NCBI GenBank assembly: GCA_017958745.1
Contig: JAGDCC010000008.1
Coordinates: 1 to 34,924 of the forward strand
Direction: 5' to 3'
DNA: 34,924 bases
Source: a bacterium
GTDB lineage: Bacteria; Patescibacteriota; Dojkabacteria; SC72
Under the pieces are notes generated by a model, which was not told the DNA's origin, ran no database searches, and saw only the letters and a program-made list of their open reading frames with translations. A program made the position numbers and the translations under genes. Below are positions 9,987-32,890 of the stretch, in pieces (positions within the stretch are counted from its first letter, which is position 1; each line of letters begins with the position of its first letter).

Positions 9987-11792
9987 ATGAGCGATTATAA
10001 TTTTTATTCTCAAGGTCAGAAGAAGAAAAATACTGCCAAGATTGCTCTTGTTGTAATTGCCGTGTTGGCTTTTGTTTCTCTTTGTTTTGGTGCTTTTTAT
10101 CTTTACCTTTATAGCGGAGATAAGGAATGTAAATATGTTAAGTATCGTTATAATGTTCTTAATTCTGATTCTTCTGTTAATGAGTTTATAAACGAAACAG
10201 TCCTTTCTGATTGTGATGGAGAAATAAAGTCTAGTAGTAATTTGTTTGTTACTAATGTCTCAAAGGATTCTGATAAGAAGGTAACTATTTCTTATGATGC
10301 AGGACTAAATAGTAAGTCTGGAGAAAGAACAATTATTCTTCCAGCTAAGGAGAAATTGGGTATTGATAAATCTGCGTATGCAGACGATAACGCTTCTCCT
10401 ATGAAGTTAAATATGACATTGGAGATTAGTGATAAGTATAATGAGTTTAAGTCTAAGATTTGTAACAAGTTTAATCTTTCTTCTTGTGTTGTAAATATCA
10501 CATTAAGAGACTGGAGTATTGAAGAAAATAATATTGTTATTACAAAGGACAATTTGGGAGAATATAAAAATTATTTACTGAAATATGGAACTAAGTGGAT
10601 AATGCAGAATATGAATTTCTCAAAGAGTAACAGACTTTATTCTTCCATTGCGTCAATATATGCAAATATTTCTTCTACATTAAAACCTCTAATTAGTGAT
10701 GCATCTTATGTTGAAGAAGTATCCGAATTTCTGAATAGATCTGTGCAGGGAAGAATTCTTAATAACTCTTCTAGTGGACTATCTGCTGTAACATGTTTAG
10801 ATATTGAAGAGATGATTACTAATATAGAAAAGTGCGGTGCAGCTTGCGAAAATGAATTGGGAGATGATTTTATTAGTAAGTTAGAAAAGACATGTGGTGT
10901 ATTTGATTCTTCCTATGTCTCAGATTATACGTTAAAGAGTAGTTTTACTCAGCTATCTCCGTATGTTAGTATGTCTCTTGCATGGAAATCCCATTCTAAT
11001 GATAGAGAATTTTTAGAGACAACATCTCAGATAATCAATGATTTCCTAAGTGATTCTTATTTTTCTGACAATAATCTATATGATACTTATCTTACTTCTG
11101 ATGCTTCTGTCGCTTTGAATATTATTTCTAAGAATGCAGATGCCTGCGGAAGTACTTGTGCAACTATTCTTTCCTCTACTCTTAGCAAATTTAATAAATA
11201 TCTTACTAAAAAAGCTGATAATGAGAGAGAAAATGTTTTTGTTAGCGGTTCTAATTACTTGACAGGAGAGGAGGTTACTTCTGCTGCTGAGGAGGATTAT
11301 TATTTATTGTGGTTAGATGGAAACAGTCTCAAAAGACAGGCTTATCTTTTGTATGAAACAGATAATAAATATACTTCTGCACAGAAGCAGAGTGTTTTGC
11401 TTTATTCTTATTATAATTATATAAACAATCGTTACAAGGATACATTTAAGTATTACGGTGCATATAATGTTGCTGATACTGCACTGGAACTTTATAAGTA
11501 TACGAAAAATCCGATATATTTAGATGAAGTGAATTATATCTACAAGAATGGTGATGCTATGAAATATAATGGGGAAAATGCTAAAGACAATGGATTGATA
11601 GGTTATTTGTCTTACATTAGTTTCTACAATAATTATAAGGATTTGAATAACTTATCTAGTGATGATATGATGAGCTTGGTTGCTAAGAATGCAAATAGAC
11701 TTTTAAGTATTATAGATGAACAACCGGAAGAATATGGTTATACATCTATTTTTACAGATAGCTATTTATTAAATATTATTTCTACATTATAA
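9987..11792 (+). CDS. Membrane-anchored (single N-terminal TM) extracytoplasmic protein, unknown family
   Basis: TM IALVVIAVLAFVSLCFGAFYLYLY followed by about 550 aa rich in N/S/Y. I recognise no motif. The stop lies 4 nt before the next gene. Confidence 0.6.
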   Translation: MSDYNFYSQGQKKKNTAKIALVVIAVLAFVSLCFGAFYLYLYSGDKECKYVKYRYNVLNSDSSVNEFINETVLSDCDGEIKSSSNLFVTNVSKDSDKKVTISYDAGLNSKSGERTIILPAKEKLGIDKSAYADDNASPMKLNMTLEISDKYNEFKSKICNKFNLSSCVVNITLRDWSIEENNIVITKDNLGEYKNYLLKYGTKWIMQNMNFSKSNRLYSSIASIYANISSTLKPLISDASYVEEVSEFLNRSVQGRILNNSSSGLSAVTCLDIEEMITNIEKCGAACENELGDDFISKLEKTCGVFDSSYVSDYTLKSSFTQLSPYVSMSLAWKSHSNDREFLETTSQIINDFLSDSYFSDNNLYDTYLTSDASVALNIISKNADACGSTCATILSSTLSKFNKYLTKKADNERENVFVSGSNYLTGEEVTSAAEEDYYLLWLDGNSLKRQAYLLYETDNKYTSAQKQSVLLYSYYNYINNRYKDTFKYYGAYNVADTALELYKYTKNPIYLDEVNYIYKNGDAMKYNGENAKDNGLIGYLSYISFYNNYKDLNNLSSDDMMSLVAKNANRLLSIIDEQPEEYGYTSIFTDSYLLNIISTL

Positions 11793-11796
11793 AAAT

Positions 11797-14700
11797 ATGA
11801 GAAAATATCTATTAAACATAACCATTGTTGTATTTACTGTTTTTTTGTTATTTCTTTTTAGTGGAAATGATGTTTATGCAGGAGTTGTAACTGTCCCATG
11901 TACGGCTTCTTGTGGATCGGGAGGTGGAACCTCTCAGCCTGTAGGTGGTAGTCCTGGTGATGTTACGACAGGTGAATACGCAGAAAATTATCAATGTAGA
12001 TGTGAATCTTGTAATGGAGGGAATGGAAATGCGACACAAACTCCTGGTGTATGTCCTGCTTGTACTGGTAACTGTACTAGTGCAACAATTTGTACTTCAT
12101 ATGTTTGGGTAATGGATTGTTATACAGATGCAGAAGGTAATATAACAAGTTGTGGCCCTTGTTATCCGGTTTGCCAGAATTATATATGTCAGGAATGTTG
12201 CTGTGAATGTGAAAATCCGTGTCCAGAAAAACCAACGTGTGGTCCAGAACCGTTTTATGAAGAAGGTTGGGTTTGGACAGGTGAGTATATAACAACTAAG
12301 TCAACCTATCCTGGTTGTGAATCTTGTAACTGTCATTGTGATCCATGGGAGTTAATATGTAAGGAAAAAAAATATGAGCCAATTATAATTCCAGAATGTG
12401 GTAATGGTATCCGAGATGCAGGAGAGCAGTGCGATCCTGTATTAGATGGCCCATCATGTTCTGCTAATTGTACATGGGCGAAGAAAAACTGCGGTGATAG
12501 TGTATGGCAATATGATGAGTATTGTGAGAAAGGTGATCCTGTTGGTGTACATGTTGCTTGGGATTCAAAAGAGTGTGACCAGAGTAAATGTGAGCCAAAG
12601 AAGGAGAAGGATGACGGTTTCTGTGGTGATGGTATTATTGATGCTGGGGAAGAGTGTGATCCTGGTAAGGATGGAACTGGTAATCGTGATACCTCTTGTA
12701 CGGCTGATTGTAAGCGAGCCAATGATGCTCCTTATTGTGGAAATGGGCAAGTAGATAATGGTGAAGTATGTGATTATTCTGCACCAGGTTACGATAGAGA
12801 AAATTGTACTGAAGAGTGTGAACCATGTGACCATTGTGTTTGTGAAGATTTGGAGTGTGATGTAGAGAAAGAAAGTGCCTATAGATCTACTGTACAGTTC
12901 TCCCCTTTTAATAAAAACAATATTAACAATTATAAATATGAGGTAAAAGGTTGGTCTGGAATAACGACATTTAATCCAACAATAGTAACAGCCACTTATT
13001 ATAATTTAACTACAAGTAATTATCAGAATCTTGAGGCTCTGTATTTCTGGATGGCAGAAGTTGGGGAAAGTATGGATGGAGGAATTCAGTTCTTAAATGA
13101 TTCAGTATCTGTCTCTCAGGGAAGCTTAAAGAGTAATAACAACTTTGGTTTTATGCTAAAGAAAACATACACATCCTGTCCAAGTGGAAAATCTTGTCTA
13201 AGCAATGAGTGGAAGAGTGGTAATAAAGGTAATTATGAAATATATCTTCCACAAAAGAAGGGTTCTTATGGACTTGAATGGGTTAAGTATGATGATAAAG
13301 GCTTGAACAGTTCTTTCTATATCTATGGTGCAAATGGTAAAAAAATGGTTCTTATAGAGATAGAAAATATAGAATATGACACAGATAAAACTTCTTATAA
13401 AGAAAAGGTAAAGCTTGTATTTAAGATGACATTCTTAAACTCTGATAATTTGCCAAGTGGAGTTGGTCCTGGAGAATATGAGCAGGTTCCTTCTGCAAAA
13501 TATCAGGTTTATAGTATGGCATTGAATGAATGGATGTTTACGACCAAGAGGTATTATGAGAGATATAAGAATGTTGCAAATGATGTTCCAAGAAATCTGA
13601 GTGAAAGTGTTACTACTGTTGGGCCAGATGGTAAGCCAGTTGCAGGCTCTTATCCAGTTGCTTTGAATAAATTGAAGGATAATGAGATAAGAAATTGGGA
13701 AGCAAGTCATTACAGAAAGAATGGATTATGGGGTGTAGATTTAGACTCTCCTGTTGTTGGGAATTTTACAAGTGGAAGTGGTAATGCACTTGTAATTGTA
13801 GGTAATTCTGGTTCTACAGTTAATGCGAACTGGAAGGCAACGGATATAGGTTCTGGTGTTGTTTATTCTGTAATGAATGGTTATCGTATTCTTGATGACA
13901 GTGAGGTAGATGACCAGACACTTTTGCGTAATGCTCCTATTACATATAAAAAGGTTCGAAGTAGTGGAACAATAGAAAGAACAGGAGTTTTAACTTTGCA
14001 AAAAGATTATGATGAATCTAAGATAGGATTTGTTAAAGTTGCTGTATTTCCAGACACAATCTGGAGTAAAAAAGAGGTTACTGAGGAAACAAGCAAGAAT
14101 AATTATTTAACTTATCCAACTGAAGTAGAGAAATCTTCTGATGAGATTAATTTGGGGAATAATAGGGGAGGAACAATTAGGTTATTCTTAACAGTCTTTG
14201 ACCAAGCAGGTAATACTATGCAGACTACAGTTACGTATGGTCTTTCAGAGTGGATACAAACTGCTGGTGGATTATTCTATTCCAAGGAAGGTACTAACTT
14301 TAATACAAGAGTATTTAAAGGTGATTCTGAACTATGGACTGGTAATATGAAATCTTTGTTTAATCGCTATAATATAACAGAAAAAACAACAAATATTGCT
14401 ACCGAGGTTATGGCAACTTCCTCTGATAAAACAACATCTCTTTATAAGTTATCTAGTGCTACAGATACTGCACAATTTTATAAATATGCTGGTTTGGATA
14501 CAGATAAAATGTTTAGTACTTATACAAGCCAAATGTTGCAAACATATAGATCCTATGTTCAAACAGAGAATGGCTCCAATCCAACTACTGGTGCAGTATG
14601 GAAATCATGTGAGGCTGGAGAGGGTAAATGTTCTGAGACTTGGACAGGAAGGGTTACAACTATTTCTGGTTTAAATAGTATTTTTAATAATAATAGAAAT

Positions 14701-15297
14701 GCTGCAGCTGGGTATTATGTAGATGGAGATTTAACAATAGGAGAGAATTCTAAAAGTAGTACGTTTGTTTGTGATGGTAGAGTAGTAGTTGTTGTTAACG
14801 GTAGGTTAAATATATATCCTAACATTACTAATGAGAATCCTACAAATGCTTGTGTGTTTATAGCACGAGGAGATGTACATATTTATGGAGGAAAAGATAG
14901 TACGACAGATTATAAAGACAGTTTTGATGGTACTGGATTTTCTTCTAATGCAAACCTCGTAGCTGATGAATTGCATGCATTTATTCTTACAGATGGTGTA
15001 ATTGTACTTGAGAAGGAGGAACAAACCTCTTTGCAGGATCCTTTATTTGTAGAGGGTGGGTTAGTATCTTTCACCAAGAGCTTGGATGATTATGCGAAAT
15101 CAAGTGATAGCGATGAGTATCAAATAAAGGAAGTAAGTTCTAGTATCGTTTTAAGAAGAGTCTTGGATGTTACAGATAGAAATATGTATCCTGTTCTTTC
15201 TGTTGTACAAAATCCTAAATATGGAAAAGCAGTAGAGGAAGTACTTGGTGCAGTAAGATTAGTTTACCAAACAGAAGTAGGATTCAAGGTTTATTAA
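11797..15297 (+). CDS. Giant secreted protein: Sec signal peptide, ~45-Cys module with three CGNGxxDxGExCD repeats, large C-terminal domain
   Basis: Signal peptide MRKYLLNITIVVFTVFLLFLFSGNDVYA|G. The Cys-rich module spans about 11899-12861. The remaining ~800 aa are Cys-poor and beta-rich by eye. Confidence 0.8.
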   Translation: MRKYLLNITIVVFTVFLLFLFSGNDVYAGVVTVPCTASCGSGGGTSQPVGGSPGDVTTGEYAENYQCRCESCNGGNGNATQTPGVCPACTGNCTSATICTSYVWVMDCYTDAEGNITSCGPCYPVCQNYICQECCCECENPCPEKPTCGPEPFYEEGWVWTGEYITTKSTYPGCESCNCHCDPWELICKEKKYEPIIIPECGNGIRDAGEQCDPVLDGPSCSANCTWAKKNCGDSVWQYDEYCEKGDPVGVHVAWDSKECDQSKCEPKKEKDDGFCGDGIIDAGEECDPGKDGTGNRDTSCTADCKRANDAPYCGNGQVDNGEVCDYSAPGYDRENCTEECEPCDHCVCEDLECDVEKESAYRSTVQFSPFNKNNINNYKYEVKGWSGITTFNPTIVTATYYNLTTSNYQNLEALYFWMAEVGESMDGGIQFLNDSVSVSQGSLKSNNNFGFMLKKTYTSCPSGKSCLSNEWKSGNKGNYEIYLPQKKGSYGLEWVKYDDKGLNSSFYIYGANGKKMVLIEIENIEYDTDKTSYKEKVKLVFKMTFLNSDNLPSGVGPGEYEQVPSAKYQVYSMALNEWMFTTKRYYERYKNVANDVPRNLSESVTTVGPDGKPVAGSYPVALNKLKDNEIRNWEASHYRKNGLWGVDLDSPVVGNFTSGSGNALVIVGNSGSTVNANWKATDIGSGVVYSVMNGYRILDDSEVDDQTLLRNAPITYKKVRSSGTIERTGVLTLQKDYDESKIGFVKVAVFPDTIWSKKEVTEETSKNNYLTYPTEVEKSSDEINLGNNRGGTIRLFLTVFDQAGNTMQTTVTYGLSEWIQTAGGLFYSKEGTNFNTRVFKGDSELWTGNMKSLFNRYNITEKTTNIATEVMATSSDKTTSLYKLSSATDTAQFYKYAGLDTDKMFSTYTSQMLQTYRSYVQTENGSNPTTGAVWKSCEAGEGKCSETWTGRVTTISGLNSIFNNNRNAAAGYYVDGDLTIGENSKSSTFVCDGRVVVVVNGRLNIYPNITNENPTNACVFIARGDVHIYGGKDSTTDYKDSFDGTGFSSNANLVADELHAFILTDGVIVLEKEEQTSLQDPLFVEGGLVSFTKSLDDYAKSSDSDEYQIKEVSSSIVLRRVLDVTDRNMYPVLSVVQNPKYGKAVEEVLGAVRLVYQTEVGFKVY
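12397..12774 (+). repeat. Three copies of a cysteine-rich repeat (CGNGIRDAGEQCD / CGDGIIDAGEECD / CGNGQVDNGEVCD)
   Basis: Copies at 12397-12435, 12622-12660 and 12736-12774. They resemble the Myxococcus-type cysteine-rich repeat (TIGR02232/DUF4215), from memory. Confidence 0.6.
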
Positions 15298-15315: not shown

Positions 15316-15561
15316 TTAAACACCTCTAAAAGGGTTGCTGATGGATAATGCAGACACAGCAACCTTTTCTTTAGGGTTGGCAATGTCTTTGGCTATGCTT
15401 ACTTTTTCCGTATTTTTTCTTTCTGCATCTTGTATGAGAGAAAGGTCATCATTTAATTGTTGTGTGTTGTTGGTGGATACGGAATTTCCAAAAATGCTGT
15501 TATCTATAACTGGTGTAGCATTTGCTATGTCTTTTGATGTCTTGTTAAAAATTATTCCCAT
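15316..15561 (-). CDS. Small hydrophilic protein (81 aa), last gene of the VirB4 module
   Basis: The ATG overlaps the VirB4 3' end by 17 nt. There is no TM and no recognisable motif. Confidence 0.45.
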   Translation of the reverse strand: MGIIFNKTSKDIANATPVIDNSIFGNSVSTNNTQQLNDDLSLIQDAERKNTEKVSIAKDIANPKEKVAVSALSISNPFRGV

Positions 15562-18013
15562 TGTTTACCTCCTCCTCTTCTTCTGGGATAGCACTTCCTG
15601 TCGCATGATAGACTCCCTTTTGTGTTTCTCTTCTAGATTTCACAACTTGTGCGCTTATAGAACCTTCATCTAACTCAGTTAGGAAGTCTTTTTGGTATTT
15701 GTATCTCTCTGGATTTCTCTCCATATCCTGCTGTCTTAGTCTTTCTTCCAGTTCTCTCTTATACTGTTCCCTCTCTTTGTTTAAAGATTCCTCTTGAGAT
15801 TCTGTCTTTGCAATTGCACCTTGAATAATTTGTTCCTGTCTTTTAGTGTTTATACCAGATTTTGCTTGACTTACCTCTGGAGCGTAAACTTGTGCAAGCT
15901 CTTCTATCGTTCTTGTATCTGGTAGCCCTTTTCTAGCCTCTAGCTTTTCTAAATCCTTTGGGATTGATGTAACAATTTCATGCTCTGCAACGCTTGCTAA
16001 GACCTGTATTCCAACATGGCTTGCACCAGCAAAGAACAAACCTTGTCCAATATCTGCATTCTGTAGGAAAAATTTCTCTCCATCCGAGAGATTAAAGACA
16101 TCTTGTAGTCTTTGAACAGATGTTGATGTCTGCTTCATAAGCATCTGTAAGGAAGAGTTTGTAATGATAGCTCTCCCCATATCGTTATTAAGAAAATCTT
16201 CTACATCCTGTGAAATTGTTGTCAAACCAAGATAATACTTTCTAGCTCTCTTTGCAATTGAATACATAAACTCTGCGGATTCTTTTGATAACATCATGTA
16301 CCAAGCCTCATCTACAATAAGAATTCTTCTCTTTCTATCTTTTCTAACCTTTGTCCAAATAAAATCCAACATAAGGTACATAGCCATAGGTTTTAGCTCA
16401 TCTTGCAAATCTCTTATACTAAAGACAGTAAGAGGATTGTTTATTTCGAAATTGGTTTCCTCATTAAAAACTCCCGCACTGCTACCCATGATGTATCTTT
16501 CTAATCTATTCGCAAGACCTCTAGCCTCTGGTTCTGCCATACCTTTAAGTACCTTGTATAAATCTTCAAGCATAGGTGGTCTTCCGTTTTGAGTTCTTGG
16601 GTCGAAAGTAATACCTTTTTCTCTGTATGTAAGAATGAGTGCTTTGTCTAGAATAGAACCTTCTATATTAGATACTCCACCGTATAGTATTCTTAAAAAT
16701 CCTTGTAAGGATAGAAGCTTTGTTCTTAACTCGTCATCACCTTCTTCTGTTGCACCTGAAAGCTCGAATGGATTCATTTTATTTCCTTTATCTTGAGAGA
16801 AAGAAATATATGCACCATTTACAGCTCGTGCTAAGTTTTCGTATTCTTTTTCTGGGTCTATAATGATTATTTCTGTTCCAAGCATCAAGCTTCTGATTGC
16901 TTCTAATTTGACAAAATAACTCTTTCCTGAACCAGATTTAGCAAAGACAACAGTATTTGCATTTTCTAATTCGAAACGATCAAAGATAACAAGACTCTTG
17001 TTGTGCTGATTTAATCCATACATGATTCCGTGATCCATTGTTAACTCAGATGTAACAAATGGAAATGTGGTAGCAAGTGAGGTAGTATCCATATTTCTTG
17101 TTATGTAAAGATTGTCTATTCCACATGGCTCACTAGACACAAAAGCCTGCTCTTGCATAAGTGTTGCTGGTTTTGCAGTTACGTTCATAGCTGCTAGAGT
17201 AGAGATTACGTTTCTAGATATTTTTTCCAATGCTTCCATACTATTGGCATACATTGTGATGTACATAGCGAAGTGGAAAAACTTTTCTGTACCTTCTGCG
17301 ATAGAATCCTGCAATTGTTGTGCATCTGATAGCGCGACTTTTAGAGATGGATCTACTACTTTTCTGTCCTCCATTTGACCGTAAAGAGTAGCTTCCATTT
17401 CTCCTATCTTCTTTTTTAATTTGTCTAAAACAGTCTTAGAATCTACTGGGTAGTAAAATGTGCTGATACGTAAGGAATGTTCAAAATTGATGATTGGGGA
17501 AAGCCAGTTAGGACCTACAAACCTTGGGTAACCATCAACAAATACTGTCTTAAAGTAATAATCTCCCATCTGTAAATGATTAAAATCAATTTCCATGTCT
17601 ATAGGAGCAATTAAATCCTGTATAGAAACATTCTGTGTATCGGCTATTTCCAAAGGCCTTTCTGGTGGTATTTGTTCTTTTTCTTGGTTAGCTTCTTCTG
17701 CTTTTTTGGTTGTATTGGAACTACTGTTGTTTTTCTTGCTGTTTGCCTCTGCAAGTTTATCTAATAATGCAAATAAAGGGTTTTTATTGGTTTTCTTCTT
17801 TTCTTCTTCAACAAGAATATCTTTGCTTTTAGCTTTGCTACTACTATCATCTCCTTTTTTATCTCTTACTTCTTGAATTATTTCCGATTCTGCTTTGTTG
17901 AATTCTGCAATTTTATCTCCAGCAGATTGAAGACCTCTAGCTCCGTCATTAAGCATTGTTGTTGTCTGACTTGTAAATGTTCTATTGTAATTATTTGAAC
18001 TCATGTCTTCCAT
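15545..18013 (-). CDS. virB4: VirB4/TraC/PrgJ-family type IV secretion ATPase
   Basis: Walker A VFAKSGSGKSYF and Walker B RRILIVDEAWYMM. VirB4-type N-domain (HLQMGDYYFKTVFVDGYPRFVGPNWLSPII...LRISTFYYP). K/E/S-rich N- and C-terminal extensions. Confidence 0.85.
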   Translation of the reverse strand: MEDMSSNNYNRTFTSQTTTMLNDGARGLQSAGDKIAEFNKAESEIIQEVRDKKGDDSSSKAKSKDILVEEEKKKTNKNPLFALLDKLAEANSKKNNSSSNTTKKAEEANQEKEQIPPERPLEIADTQNVSIQDLIAPIDMEIDFNHLQMGDYYFKTVFVDGYPRFVGPNWLSPIINFEHSLRISTFYYPVDSKTVLDKLKKKIGEMEATLYGQMEDRKVVDPSLKVALSDAQQLQDSIAEGTEKFFHFAMYITMYANSMEALEKISRNVISTLAAMNVTAKPATLMQEQAFVSSEPCGIDNLYITRNMDTTSLATTFPFVTSELTMDHGIMYGLNQHNKSLVIFDRFELENANTVVFAKSGSGKSYFVKLEAIRSLMLGTEIIIIDPEKEYENLARAVNGAYISFSQDKGNKMNPFELSGATEEGDDELRTKLLSLQGFLRILYGGVSNIEGSILDKALILTYREKGITFDPRTQNGRPPMLEDLYKVLKGMAEPEARGLANRLERYIMGSSAGVFNEETNFEINNPLTVFSIRDLQDELKPMAMYLMLDFIWTKVRKDRKRRILIVDEAWYMMLSKESAEFMYSIAKRARKYYLGLTTISQDVEDFLNNDMGRAIITNSSLQMLMKQTSTSVQRLQDVFNLSDGEKFFLQNADIGQGLFFAGASHVGIQVLASVAEHEIVTSIPKDLEKLEARKGLPDTRTIEELAQVYAPEVSQAKSGINTKRQEQIIQGAIAKTESQEESLNKEREQYKRELEERLRQQDMERNPERYKYQKDFLTELDEGSISAQVVKSRRETQKGVYHATGSAIPEEEEEVNNGNNF

Positions 18014-18014
18014 T

Positions 18015-18638
18015 TTAGTCTTCTGTTGGATTATATATAGAATAAAACTCTGTAATTAACTCTTTATTTGTTAGCTGGTGGCCAGTTAATCCCATTCTTC
18101 CTAACTGCTTCAAAATATGATCTCTTTTAGGATATAGGTAAATCTTTGCTTTTTCTAGTACTGTCTCCAAGTTTTGTTCTTGTGCACTATCTGAATCTTT
18201 CTTTCCACCAAGTGGATTAATTGTTGACATGGAGGTATATGTGTAAGGAATAACAATGAAGAAGCTTTTATCCAATACCTCATTCTGGATAATTAATTTC
18301 TGTACAAAAACTGTGTATATATCTAGCTGTTTCCTAAGACCATCGCTCATAGCTCTTTGTTTTTGCTCGTCAAGATAATCAAGGTAATTGCTAATATCTA
18401 TTCTTTTTGTTCTAATGAGAATCTGTATTCTAAAACTAAGAGAATTAAGAAGTCCTGCAAAAGCATAGATCTTATTGTCTTGTTCATAATCTGCAAGAAG
18501 CTCAAAGTTAATAGAAGATGTCTGTATTACCATACTGACACTACCGTTCTTATTTACTACTAAATCATCTGCAATCTGTTTTACTGCAAGACTGTCTTGT
18601 GTAGAAGCTTTTGCTCTTGCTCTTGCGTTTCTATCCAT
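18015..18638 (-). CDS. Hypothetical T4SS-associated protein resembling a stand-alone VirB4 N-terminal domain
   Basis: SLAVKQIADDLVVNKNGSVSMVIQTSSINFELLADYEQDNKIYAFAGLLNSLSFRIQILIRT resembles the N-terminus of Gram-positive VirB4-like ATPases, by eye. The stop lies 1 nt before the VirB4 ATG, and the start overlaps the PrgI-like gene by 8 nt. Confidence 0.45.
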   Translation of the reverse strand: MDRNARARAKASTQDSLAVKQIADDLVVNKNGSVSMVIQTSSINFELLADYEQDNKIYAFAGLLNSLSFRIQILIRTKRIDISNYLDYLDEQKQRAMSDGLRKQLDIYTVFVQKLIIQNEVLDKSFFIVIPYTYTSMSTINPLGGKKDSDSAQEQNLETVLEKAKIYLYPKRDHILKQLGRMGLTGHQLTNKELITEFYSIYNPTED

Positions 18639-19512
18639 TCGTTAATGTGCTTATTTTAATTGGATTTTTGCTATCTGCTAGTTTTTTTGTTAATGCAATT
18701 TCGACATCAGGGAATATAAATTTAGAATGCTTAAAGCTTAGCACATAACTGCCTTCATCCCAATGCTTGTTTGATAGAAAATAACCATTAGGACCTGTCT
18801 TATTAGCATATAATATTCTTCCATCTTTTGACTTAAGGTATGTTGTTACATTAGTTATTGGTCTGTAGTCTTTTGTACATAACCATACATTGATATTTCC
18901 AGGAAGGTCATCTTGTCCTTCTATAGTAAATTGATAATTACCAATATTATCTTCTGTTATGAATATATGGTTCTCATCTAGTGGTGCTGCTGGTTGCTCT
19001 GCAAATGTGGTGGTGTTAAGAGTATCTATGTCTCCAATTGTTGCTTCTTGCTCCTTCTCAAATTTTGTCGCTTCATCAATGTTCTTTTGTATACCATCTA
19101 TACTTGTGTCTTCTCCTGCACCGATTATCTTTTTCTTAGTGCTTTGATCACTTGCGACAAGTCTTCCATCTTCTGTTGGCTTTACTGCTGGTTTGTTACG
19201 CTCTTGTTTCATTTCTTTGCTTAACCAAACTCTTTGAGTAGGGGCATTTATTGCCGTAAAATAATTCTTGAGAAAAACATCAGCATCTTGTCCGTTAATT
19301 GGTACCATTCCCATAAAGCATCCAATACCTCCAACCATAATTGCAGCAGGAATAGAAAGCTGTGGCGGTAAGATGTGTTCTGACGTCCAGTTTATAAGGA
19401 TTCCTGCGAGTCCAAGTCCCCCAGCTATCCACACAAATTGTTTGATAGTAAACCTCTCGAACAATTTGAATTGTACGTCTAATACATTTTGTGGTATCGC
19501 ATGTTGTCGCAT
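18631..19512 (-). CDS. PrgI-family (VirB3-like) membrane protein fused to a C-terminal beta-sandwich-like domain
   Basis: N-terminus MRQHAIPQNVLDVQFKLFERFTIKQFVWIAGGLGLAGILIN plus a second TM fits the PrgI pattern. The C-terminus (NINVWLCTKDYRPITNVTTYLKSKDGRILYANKTGPNGYFLS...GSYVLSF) resembles a CarboxypepD_reg-like fold. Confidence 0.65.
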   Translation of the reverse strand: MRQHAIPQNVLDVQFKLFERFTIKQFVWIAGGLGLAGILINWTSEHILPPQLSIPAAIMVGGIGCFMGMVPINGQDADVFLKNYFTAINAPTQRVWLSKEMKQERNKPAVKPTEDGRLVASDQSTKKKIIGAGEDTSIDGIQKNIDEATKFEKEQEATIGDIDTLNTTTFAEQPAAPLDENHIFITEDNIGNYQFTIEGQDDLPGNINVWLCTKDYRPITNVTTYLKSKDGRILYANKTGPNGYFLSNKHWDEGSYVLSFKHSKFIFPDVEIALTKKLADSKNPIKISTLTNG

Positions 19513-27142: not shown

Positions 27143-28315
27143 ATGGCAGACTTTGAAAGAACAAAGCCACACATGAACATTGGAACGCTTGGTCATGTGG
27201 ATCACGGTAAGACTACCTTAATCAGAGGTATCTTAAAAGCATTCCCTATGAATAATGATGTAGATAAGATGATTGATAAATTGGATAAAGATCCAAATTC
27301 AAGAGCAAAGTCTATTACCATTTCTATTGCACACGTTGAGTTCGAAACAGAGAACAGACACTATGCATTGGTAGATTGCCCAGGACATAAAGATTACATC
27401 AAAAATATGATCACTGGTGCAGCACAAATGGATGGTGCTATCTTGGTAGTATCCGCAAGCGATGGTGCAATGCCACAGACAAAAGAGCACCTCTTACTTG
27501 CAAAGCAGGTTGGTGTTCCAAGGATTGTTGTGTTCATCAATGAATTTGGTGATACAGATCCAGAAATCTTGGAATTAATCAAATCTGATGTCCAAGACTT
27601 ATTGAAGAAGTATGGATTTGATGAGAATGCTCCAATAATTGTAGGAAATGCACTCAAAGCTCAAAATGGTGAGCCAGAGGGATTAGAAGCAGCTAAGGAG
27701 TTAATGAAAGCTGTTGATGAGTATTTCCCAATGCCAGAAAGAGAAATCGACAAGCCATTCTTACTACCTGTTGAAGATGTATTCTCAATTGAAGGTAGAG
27801 GAACTGTTGTAACTGGAAGAATTGAAAGAGGAAAGGTAAAGATTGGTGATGAGGTTGATGTATTAGGAATGGGAAGAAAAGCACAAAAAACTGCTGTTAC
27901 AGGTGTAGAAATGTTCAATAAGACATTAGCAGAAGGACAAGCGGGAGATAACGTTGGAATCTTATTAAGAGGTTTCAAGAGAACAGATGTACAGAGAGGT
28001 CAGGTACTTGCTGCTCCAGGAAGTATTCAAGTACATACTGAATTCAAAGCACATGTTTATGTATTAACAAAGGAAGAAGGTGGTAGACATACACCATTCA
28101 TCTCTGGCTACAAGCCACAGTTCTATATCAAGACTGCAGATGTAACAGGTGAAGTAGTATTACCAGAAGGTACAGAAATGGTTGCACCTGGAGATAATAC
28201 AGAATTCTCCGTAAAGTTGATGGATGAAGTTGCTTTGGAGGCTGGAACATCTTTCGCTATTAGAGAAGGTGGACAGACAGTAGGTCAGGGTGTTGTAACA
28301 GAGATTATTAAGTAG
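27143..28315 (+). CDS. tuf: Elongation factor Tu (non-canonical G4 and switch I)
   Basis: [19 protein letters not shown] and DCPGH motifs with well conserved domains II/III ([44 protein letters not shown]). G4 reads NEFGD and switch I reads AKSITI. Confidence 0.9.
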
Positions 28316-28409: not shown

Positions 28410-28721
28410 ATGGTTAATTCAACTACAAAGATTAGGGTCAAATTGAAAGGATATGATTCAATAGTCGTGGATAAGGCTGCAAAAAGTATTATAGAAACAT
28501 CTATAAGTACTGGTGCAAAGGTTGCAGGTCCAATACCTCTTCCAACAAAGAAAAGAAAGGTTGCTGTTGATAGATCACCATTTATTTACAAGAGCTCAAT
28601 GGAACATTTTGAAATAAATACATATAAGAGAATAATAGATATAATATATCCAACTGCCAAAACAATAGATGCTTTGCAGCATTTACAAATGCCAGCAGGA
28701 GTAGATATTGGAATACAATAA
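28410..28721 (+). CDS. rpsJ: 30S ribosomal protein S10
   Basis: IRVKLKGYD...PIPLPTKK...RSPFIYKSSMEHFE. Confidence 0.95.
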   Translation: MVNSTTKIRVKLKGYDSIVVDKAAKSIIETSISTGAKVAGPIPLPTKKRKVAVDRSPFIYKSSMEHFEINTYKRIIDIIYPTAKTIDALQHLQMPAGVDIGIQ

Positions 28722-29916: not shown

Positions 29917-30199
29917 TACTATTAAACTACAACCAGTAATGACAGAGAAGACTTATGCTATGGCAAACGCACAGAATAAGTATACTTTTATGGTACCTAG
30001 AGGTATTAATAATATTGAAATTGGTAAAGCAGTACAGATTAAGTATAAGGTTAAGGTTATTGATGTAAATAGAACAGTTAAGTATGGAAAGATAAGAAGA
30101 GATTACAGAACATACAAGATGAGAAGAGAACCAGATATGGTTAAAGTAATAGTTACTCTTAAAAAAGGAGATAAAATTGATGAATTTTTAAAGGCATAG
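29906..30199 (+). CDS. rplW: 50S ribosomal protein L23
   Basis: Position and the pattern PVMTEKTYAM...KYTFMV. Overlaps rplD by 11 nt. Confidence 0.9.
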   Translation: MESNTIKLQPVMTEKTYAMANAQNKYTFMVPRGINNIEIGKAVQIKYKVKVIDVNRTVKYGKIRRDYRTYKMRREPDMVKVIVTLKKGDKIDEFLKA

Positions 30200-31740: not shown

Positions 31741-32394
31741 ATGGGAAGAAAAGTAAATCCAAATGCAATAAGAATGGGTGTAAATAAAACATGGGAATCT
31801 GTTTGGTATTCTGATAAAAAGCATTTCCCAGACATGTTAGCAGAAGACTTGAAGATTAAGGAAATGGTTACAGAGGCAATGAAGGATGCTGAATTGGATA
31901 GCGTTAAGATAAACAGATCTATAAACAAGACAGAAGTAACAGCATATGTTGCTAAGCCAGGTGTTGCAATTGGAAGAGGTGGAGAAGGAATAGATTTATT
32001 ACAAAAGAAATTGAGAAGATTGTTGAAATCTAAGAATGTAGAAATGAAGGTTAAAGAAATTAAGAACTCTGATCTTTCTGCTAGAGTAGTTGCAAGAACA
32101 ATTGCAAATGGAATAGAGAGAAGACAACCATCCAAGTTGTTAGTTGCAAGTGCAAAAGAAAAGGTTATGGCAGCAGGGGCAAAGGGAGTAAGGATATGGA
32201 TTTCTGGAAGAATTAATAATGCAAGTCAAGCAAGAACAACAAAGGTAACAGCAGGATCTGTACCAGCACAAACATTAAGAGCTGATGTAGATTATGCTTT
32301 GGAAGTTGCACAAACAATTGATGCAGGACTTATGGGTGTAAAAGTATGGATATGTAAGGGAGAAAAAAATAATATAGAAACAGAAGAAGATTAA
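31741..32394 (+). CDS. rpsC: 30S ribosomal protein S3
   Basis: [14 protein letters not shown]...[14 protein letters not shown] (KH domain), [13 protein letters not shown]. Confidence 0.96.
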
Positions 32395-32414: not shown

Positions 32415-32828
32415 ATGTTACAGCCAAAGAAAAGAAAATTTCCAAAAGAGTTTAGAGGAACGATGGGTGGAGTTGCTACAGCTAACAACAAAGTAACCTT
32501 TGGTGAATATGGCTTGAAAGCAATGGAAAATGGATGGATTAATGCAAGACAGATAGAGGCCGCAAGAAGAGCTGTTGCAGGTTATACAAAGAGAAAAGGA
32601 AAAGTATGGATAAAGATATTCCCACAGTAGTCTTACACACAAAGAGCAACAAACAGTAAGATGATGTGAGGAAAATGTGCAGTAGAGGGATATGTAGCAG
32701 TAGTGATACCAGGAACAATCATGATGGAAATAGGTGGTGTTGATGAAGCAACATCAAAAGAAGCAATGAGATTAGCATCACACAAGTTTTGTATAAAAAC
32801 TAAATTTGTAAGCAGAACAGAAATTTAA
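32415..32828 (+). pseudogene. rplP: 50S ribosomal protein L16 frame, full length and collinear but interrupted by in-frame TAG (32628-32630) and TGA (32667-32669)
   Basis: One frame reads MLQPKKRKF...[92 protein letters not shown] + TAA. It aligns without indels to the recalled B. subtilis L16 (...[70 protein letters not shown]...). Confidence 0.85.
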
Positions 32829-32837
32829 TAAATTGCT

Positions 32838-32846
32838 TGTTATAAT
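32838..32846 (+). promoter_or_regulatory. Perfect extended -10 (TGtTATAAT) in the rplP-rpsQ spacer
   Basis: tgttataat at 32838-32846, 45 nt upstream of the rpsQ ATG. Confidence 0.4.
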
Positions 32847-32890
32847 TGTAAAATATTGATAAAATACAGACCGTTACTTATTAAAAATAT

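Follow-up and report, generated by a model that had tools for sequence, protein, structure and literature searches.

The window analysed here is a stretch of 34,924 nucleotides, assigned by homology searches to Candidatus Dojkabacteria (WS6), a lineage of the Patescibacteria/CPR. It contains a canonical str/S10 operon, in which the genes encoding EF-G, EF-Tu, S10, L3, L4, L23, L2, S19, L22, S3, L16, S17, L14, L24 and L5 follow one another. The ends of the window resemble contig ends, as there is a mismatch 4 nt before its final base and a tract of differences at 33-129, and the window probably represents a complete contig of a short-read metagenome assembly. Between rpsC and rpsQ, in the S3-L16-S17 slot, lies rplP, the gene for uL16 (32415-32828, + strand). 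On translation its frame runs for 71 codons to a TAG, for 12 more to a TGA and for a further 52 to a terminal TAA, giving 137 codons in total. An earlier note on this DNA had described the same two in-frame stops, at 32628-32630 and 32667-32669, and had held the gene to be collinear with L16 without need of an indel. Both statements hold: with the stops masked, residues 4-132 match profile positions 1-132 of 132 of the Pfam family Ribosomal_L16 (PF00252), end to end and free of gaps (137 bits, E = 4.7e-40). The description of the lesions was correct for the two stops and overlooked a third, distinct one in the same cluster, a TGT (Cys) at codon 88 (32676-32678). When the gene is set against six other assemblies (L020-L025), each of the three codons on the + strand departs from them by one base: codon 72 is TAG for AAG (Lys), with T for A at 32628; codon 85 is TGA for GGA (Gly), with T for G at 32667; and codon 88 is TGT for GGT (Gly), with T for G at 32676. 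The three bases fall within 49 nt of each other, and every one is a first codon position changed to T.

Comparison within the clade shows what is aberrant in this protein and what is not. The closest relative of the window L16 is P0001, an intact protein of 137 aa present on several contigs, to which it is 98% identical and from which it differs at K72 (TAG), G85 (TGA) and G88 (Cys) and nowhere else; nearly all of the top database homologues are also 137 aa long. When the window L16 was aligned with 17 relatives (alignment A1), codon 72 proved to be Lys in every other sequence, codon 88 Gly in 17/17 relatives and codon 85 Gly in 15/17. The TAG does therefore stand opposite a conserved Lys, as had been claimed, and the TGA, which had been assigned to a variable position, falls in a more variable column that holds Gly in most Dojkabacteria. 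What the alignment does not bear out is the claim that invariant residues have disappeared from the segment holding the stops (KP to stop-S, KP to RA and RMGxGKG to KMM-stop-GKC), given that the middle segment reads FP[HQ]K[SP]YT[QK]R[SA].NSKM[LM]GGKG in the relatives and the window has the normal Dojkabacteria L16 sequence here. The apparent local decay arose because the gene had been compared with the L16 sequences of E. coli and B. subtilis and not with its own clade; the aberrant residues number three, two replaced by stops and one by Cys. In its collinear full-length match, its identity to an intact 137-aa protein and its place between rpsC and rpsQ, the window copy is thus like any uL16 of the Dojkabacteria, and it differs from them in having TAG, TGA and TGT where the relatives have Lys, Gly and Gly. 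An uninterrupted frame with Lys72 and the GGKG loop, as is characteristic of uL16, occurs in all six comparator loci and in 18/18 Dojkabacteria-type genomes (L001-L018) and is not found in the window. A compensated frameshift across the middle segment was considered and rejected, as there are zero gaps relative to L020 and the in-frame segment equals P0001 but for the three residues.

The six comparators are independent assemblies of the same or a sister population and represent five samples, with four of them taken from ENA (ERZ28653451, ERZ28653755, ERZ28653902 and ERZ28653906) and two from Logan (SRR32285419 and SRR32285424). Four align to the window at near identity and without gaps: L020 (99.87% over 12.5 kb), L022 (99.71% over 7.7 kb), L023 (99.88% over 2.5 kb, 2507 nt) and L024 (99.84% over 1.9 kb, 1883 nt). 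The other two belong to sister strains, namely L021 (about 96% over 10.2 kb, with 5 gaps) and L025 (about 97% over 0.5 kb, without gaps). In all six loci the order of the genes is that of the window and the L16 is the intact P0001, and at 32628/32667/32676, where the window has T/T/T, 6/6 have A/G/G. In L023 and L024 the three rplP bases are the sole mismatches to the window. The variant is thus private to one assembly, with the others concordant over six loci and five samples, as a consensus error would have it. The earlier note had named in advance, as the observation that would speak against a genuine anomaly, relatives with sense codons at both stop sites, and this is what the comparison returned, with AAG and GGA in six assemblies from five samples; the last of its four explanations, an error in the consensus, gains support from the same codons.

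Some features of the window's own strain bear on how close these comparators are. The window carries a private tract in the EF-Tu gene, and its exact haplotype was not found in a second assembly; therefore none of the comparators is demonstrably the same clone as the window. This tract, in tuf (27770-27847), holds 7 differences in 78 nt against the otherwise 99.9%-identical scaffold_27, and a second one, in ychF (33-129), holds 8 differences in 97 nt against the same scaffold. The differences in both are mostly synonymous and mix transitions with transversions, unlike the error-type singletons described below, and the two tracts look like genuine mosaicism between strains, like recombination or like a strain-chimeric consensus. 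Protein look-ups for variants specific to the window (the 71-aa L16 fragment, S10 D80Y and the EF-Tu haplotype) returned none on record, which is in keeping with a consensus error. A 70-nt pattern in which the three sites were set to N had 0 matches in a scan of JGI metagenomes, and the population is therefore absent from the JGI metagenome collection.

A gene interrupted by stops may be a decaying duplicate whose functional counterpart lies elsewhere, or it may encode a protein made in two pieces; both had been put forward for this rplP, and in view of the following evidence either would be very improbable. Natural variation was gauged by comparing the window with the 96% strain L021 over the 15 genes from EF-G to L5. 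This gave 286 synonymous and 26 non-synonymous codon differences (92% and 8%), and 243 transitions and 127 transversions (66% and 34%). Within rplP, the three private sites aside, the same comparison yields 12 synonymous and 0 non-synonymous codon differences, which indicates that strong purifying selection has continued to act on the gene up to the sequence seen in the window, and a decaying pseudogene is excluded because of this. Beyond the stops themselves, nothing speaks for a duplicate or a split gene. Against a duplicate, the gene occupies the canonical S3-L16-S17 slot, where the sister strains hold their only visible rplP copy, an intact one, and it displays no decay other than the three bases, with no indels in the 12.5 kb shared with L020. 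Against a split protein, the 12 residues between the stops would be lost together with Lys72, Gly85 and Gly88 of the conserved KMxGGKG loop, and no ORF of at least 50 aa follows the TGA in the rplP frame.

The stops could also be decoded, with TGA and TAG read as amino acids and a full-length L16 made from the sequence as written. This had been among the possibilities raised earlier, and its starting point, that TGA is never a terminator in the window, is correct, as the 34 genes end in TAA (28), TAG (6) and TGA (0). TGA is equally rare as a terminator in the neighbouring data, with 0/61 gene calls in L020 and L021 and 1/209 ORFs in the 18 related loci L001-L018, although the genes sampled in these tallies are mostly highly expressed ones, which favour TAA. 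In addition, a TGA opposite Gly has the meaning of genetic code 25, in which UGA is Gly and which is used by the related Gracilibacteria and Absconditabacteria, so that the rplP of the window would share with that system both a TGA at a Gly position and a CPR host nearly devoid of TGA terminators. Other observations speak against decoding. Six of the 34 genes end in TAG, which is thus a working terminator, and every gene apart from rplP, 33 in all, is an intact ORF under code 11 that contains neither TGA nor TAG in frame, over roughly 11,000 codons. The near-identical strains have GGA and AAG at the rplP sites, code 25 leaves the TAG unexplained, recoding of any kind does not account for the accompanying G88C, and the literature treats Dojkabacteria as users of code 11. 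As the only gene with stops in its frame, rplP is a lone exception and not one case in a recoded genome, and decoding of the two stops as amino acids is extremely unlikely.

Individual forms of recoding were examined as well. Reassignment of UGA, whether as in code 25 or as in code 4, would place in-frame TGA at Gly or Trp positions in many genes, which is not seen in the 33 intact ones, and tryptophan is always encoded by TGG in the window. Reassignment or suppression of UAG, of the Pyl or Gln type, was rejected on the six genes that end in TAG and on the lack of any other in-frame TAG. Selenocysteine recoding fails on two counts, as the TGA aligns with Gly and the Rfam scan of the window at gathering thresholds returned one tRNA and nothing else, hence no SECIS. 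ARAGORN found tRNA-Met(CAT) as the only tRNA gene in the window, so that the suppressor tRNAs with CUA or UCA anticodons that had been proposed as a check are not encoded there. An alternative code across the genome was rejected on the basis of stop usage and the intact ORFs. With in-frame TGA absent from all the intact genes that were counted, the codon looks avoided in this clade, not reassigned. A narrower variant of the idea, in which a living subpopulation truly carries the three T's in phase and makes its L16 by reading through UGA and UAG, has just as slight a chance of being correct; if true, an essential ribosomal protein would depend on stop-codon suppression in a CPR bacterium.

The nature of the three rplP changes becomes clearer from the rest of the window, which was compared over its whole length with a 168-kb scaffold (L026 and L020) and with the other assemblies. 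Singletons private to the window that could be polarised by at least two other assemblies amount to eight (13268, 15924, 15963, 28647, 30092, 32628, 32667 and 32676). Outside rplP, these are C→A at 13268 (+), which gives S491Y in an 1166-aa hypothetical protein; T→A at 15924 and T→A at 15963, which give Q697L and N684I in a VirB4-like protein encoded on the − strand; G→T at 28647 (+), which gives D80Y in S10 (rpsJ), a residue that is E or D in the two solved S10 proteins shown in the alignment; and T→A at 30092 (+), which gives L63I in L23 (rplW). The rplP changes, all on the + strand, are A→T (K72 to TAG), G→T (G85 to TGA) and G→T (G88C). All eight are transversions (8/8), all are non-synonymous or nonsense (8/8), and when collapsed by strand they comprise four G→T and four A→T. 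In both spectrum and coding effect they are unlike evolved variation: compared with the natural variation in the same genes, the excess is significant for non-synonymous changes (Fisher p = 7e-9) and for transversions (2e-4), a pattern blind to coding effect. Three further substitutions private to the window (34301, 34452 and 34921) have the support of L020 and L021 only; two of them are transitions, and the private substitutions, these three included, are non-synonymous wherever they are coding. Judging from the sequences compared, the private changes beyond rplP, which affect S10, L23, L5, the VirB4-like protein and the hypothetical protein of 1166 aa, probably arose as consensus errors too.

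The position of the private changes is also informative. Private changes occur in the window at 0.23 per kb, a rate at which any one of them would have two more within 49 nt with a p of about 6e-5; the cluster in rplP therefore suggests one event, with an extent close to that of a read tail. A second small cluster is formed by 15924 and 15963, which lie 40 nt apart. Ribosomal-protein genes contain five of the private singletons (28647, 30092 and the three sites in rplP), and each of these changes the first base of its codon. Random error would be expected to yield a somewhat less ordered pattern; n is small, and the bias is partly explained by the enrichment of G at first positions on the purine-rich coding strand. 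Other codon positions are affected as well, both in the three singletons outside ribosomal-protein genes and among the private changes of the sister assembly described next. No shared motif, such as a methylation site, is evident around the erroneous bases in the sequence contexts inspected.

One of the sister assemblies, ERZ28653902, has private stops of its own. On one of its contigs (L022), S3 is cut into 82 + 124 aa by a GGA→TGA change at window-equivalent position 31987, and on another (L027) a GAG→TAG change at window-equivalent 16309 contributes to a VirB4-like gene being called in three pieces, a gene that also contains an N-run at about 16592-16622, which marks a scaffolding gap. Neither the S3 nor the VirB4 stop is present in the window. 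Transversions are also clustered on contigs of the same assembly, over stretches of up to about 55 nt, and one such cluster sits where a contig ends. Private stop-creating transversions that differ between assemblies and fall in essential genes are predicted by technical error and not by inheritance. The window region to which the VirB4-like gene belongs is a type-IV-secretion-like cluster (15545-19512, − strand) adjoining chaperone and ribosomal genes, which encodes a VirB4/TraG-type P-loop ATPase (822 aa), a TraC-like protein and a PrgI-like protein; upstream of it, at 9987-15297, lie the genes for two large proteins (601 and 1166 aa) without a Pfam match.

Taken together, comparison of the sequences leads us to read the two stops and the Gly→Cys change as a consensus error in this contig and not as a property of the organism, with a probability of about 0.88. 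According to this reading, the true rplP sequence would have AAG, GGA and GGT at the three codons and would encode, under the standard code, an ordinary intact uL16 of 137 aa. The three T's at 32628, 32667 and 32676 would be miscalls from the low-quality tail of one read or read pair, and a poor read of this kind would have been carried into a consensus built from short metagenomic reads where coverage was thin; the thin coverage, the read tail and the short-read platform are the presumed parts of this scheme, while the privacy to one assembly, the clustering, the spectrum, the blindness to coding effect and the purifying selection on the gene were observed. With low-coverage short-read metagenome consensus errors, whose spurious stops mimic pseudogenes, the case shares privacy to one assembly, clustering over the length of a read tail, a spectrum of transversions only, a non-synonymous effect in 8/8 changes and sister assemblies with different private stops in essential genes, its membership of that class being assigned by such comparison.

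The principal competitor takes the three T's as real. A clustered event private to this DNA, from error-prone repair or oxidative damage, would have struck a minor lineage that is non-viable or dying, or else extracellular DNA, which then dominated the reads at the locus; rplP would in that case be a brand-new null allele and not a functional arrangement. A single lesion-bypass event could yield three tightly clustered changes, all to T, and G→T is the classic outcome of 8-oxoG. The other private non-synonymous transversions in the window would likewise fit a damaged or mutator template. Nevertheless, this scenario appears unlikely. Deletion of L16 proved impossible in both E. coli and B. subtilis, the model bacteria tested (10.1101/2021.01.31.429008), and every other assembly of the population is intact. 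To reach the consensus, a lethal allele would need a coverage of about 1-2×, at which it is indistinguishable from read error, and the stops of the same class that are private to the sister assembly, again in essential genes, are more simply technical. Targeting by a diversity-generating retroelement (DGR), an element in which CPR genomes are rich, was also rejected as a source of the changes: the intact sequence has G at two of the three sites, so that the changes are not adenine-specific. The gene calls of the syntenic L020 and L026 loci include no reverse-transcriptase Pfam domain.

If the changes are a consensus error, as we favour, the biological import of the locus is small, rplP being an ordinary uL16 (PF00252) once the three bases are corrected. 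Its value lies in two cautions. Essential single-copy genes with internal stops in metagenome contigs can mimic recoding or pseudogenisation, and when a divergent lineage such as the CPR is set against E. coli or B. subtilis, residues that are normal for the clade can be mistaken for decay. There is also a practical consequence, as gene callers would score the contig as lacking a complete L16, with effects on estimates of marker-gene completeness and on ribosomal-protein phylogenies.

The region immediately downstream of rplP has features of its own. The gene for L29, rpmC, is absent between rplP and rpsQ in the window (32829-32890), and it is likewise missing from this position in L020, in L021 and in all 18 genomes of the Dojkabacteria type (L001-L018), where the spacer measures 56-120 nt, while the outgroup L019 has an ORF of 69 aa between the two genes, at the usual position of L29. 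Loss of L29 in the CPR is reported to be lineage-specific and has been named for some Peregrinibacteria (10.1101/2022.01.07.475337). The spacer of the window contains, at about 32835-32870, the motif CTTGTTA … TGATAAAATACAG, and a form of it is kept across the Dojkabacteria as CTTGAGA, about 17 nt and then TGnTAgAATACA. By its sequence, this motif looks like a sigma-70 −35 box followed by an extended −10 element, which suggests a predicted internal promoter ahead of rpsQ, in the slot usually taken by rpmC.
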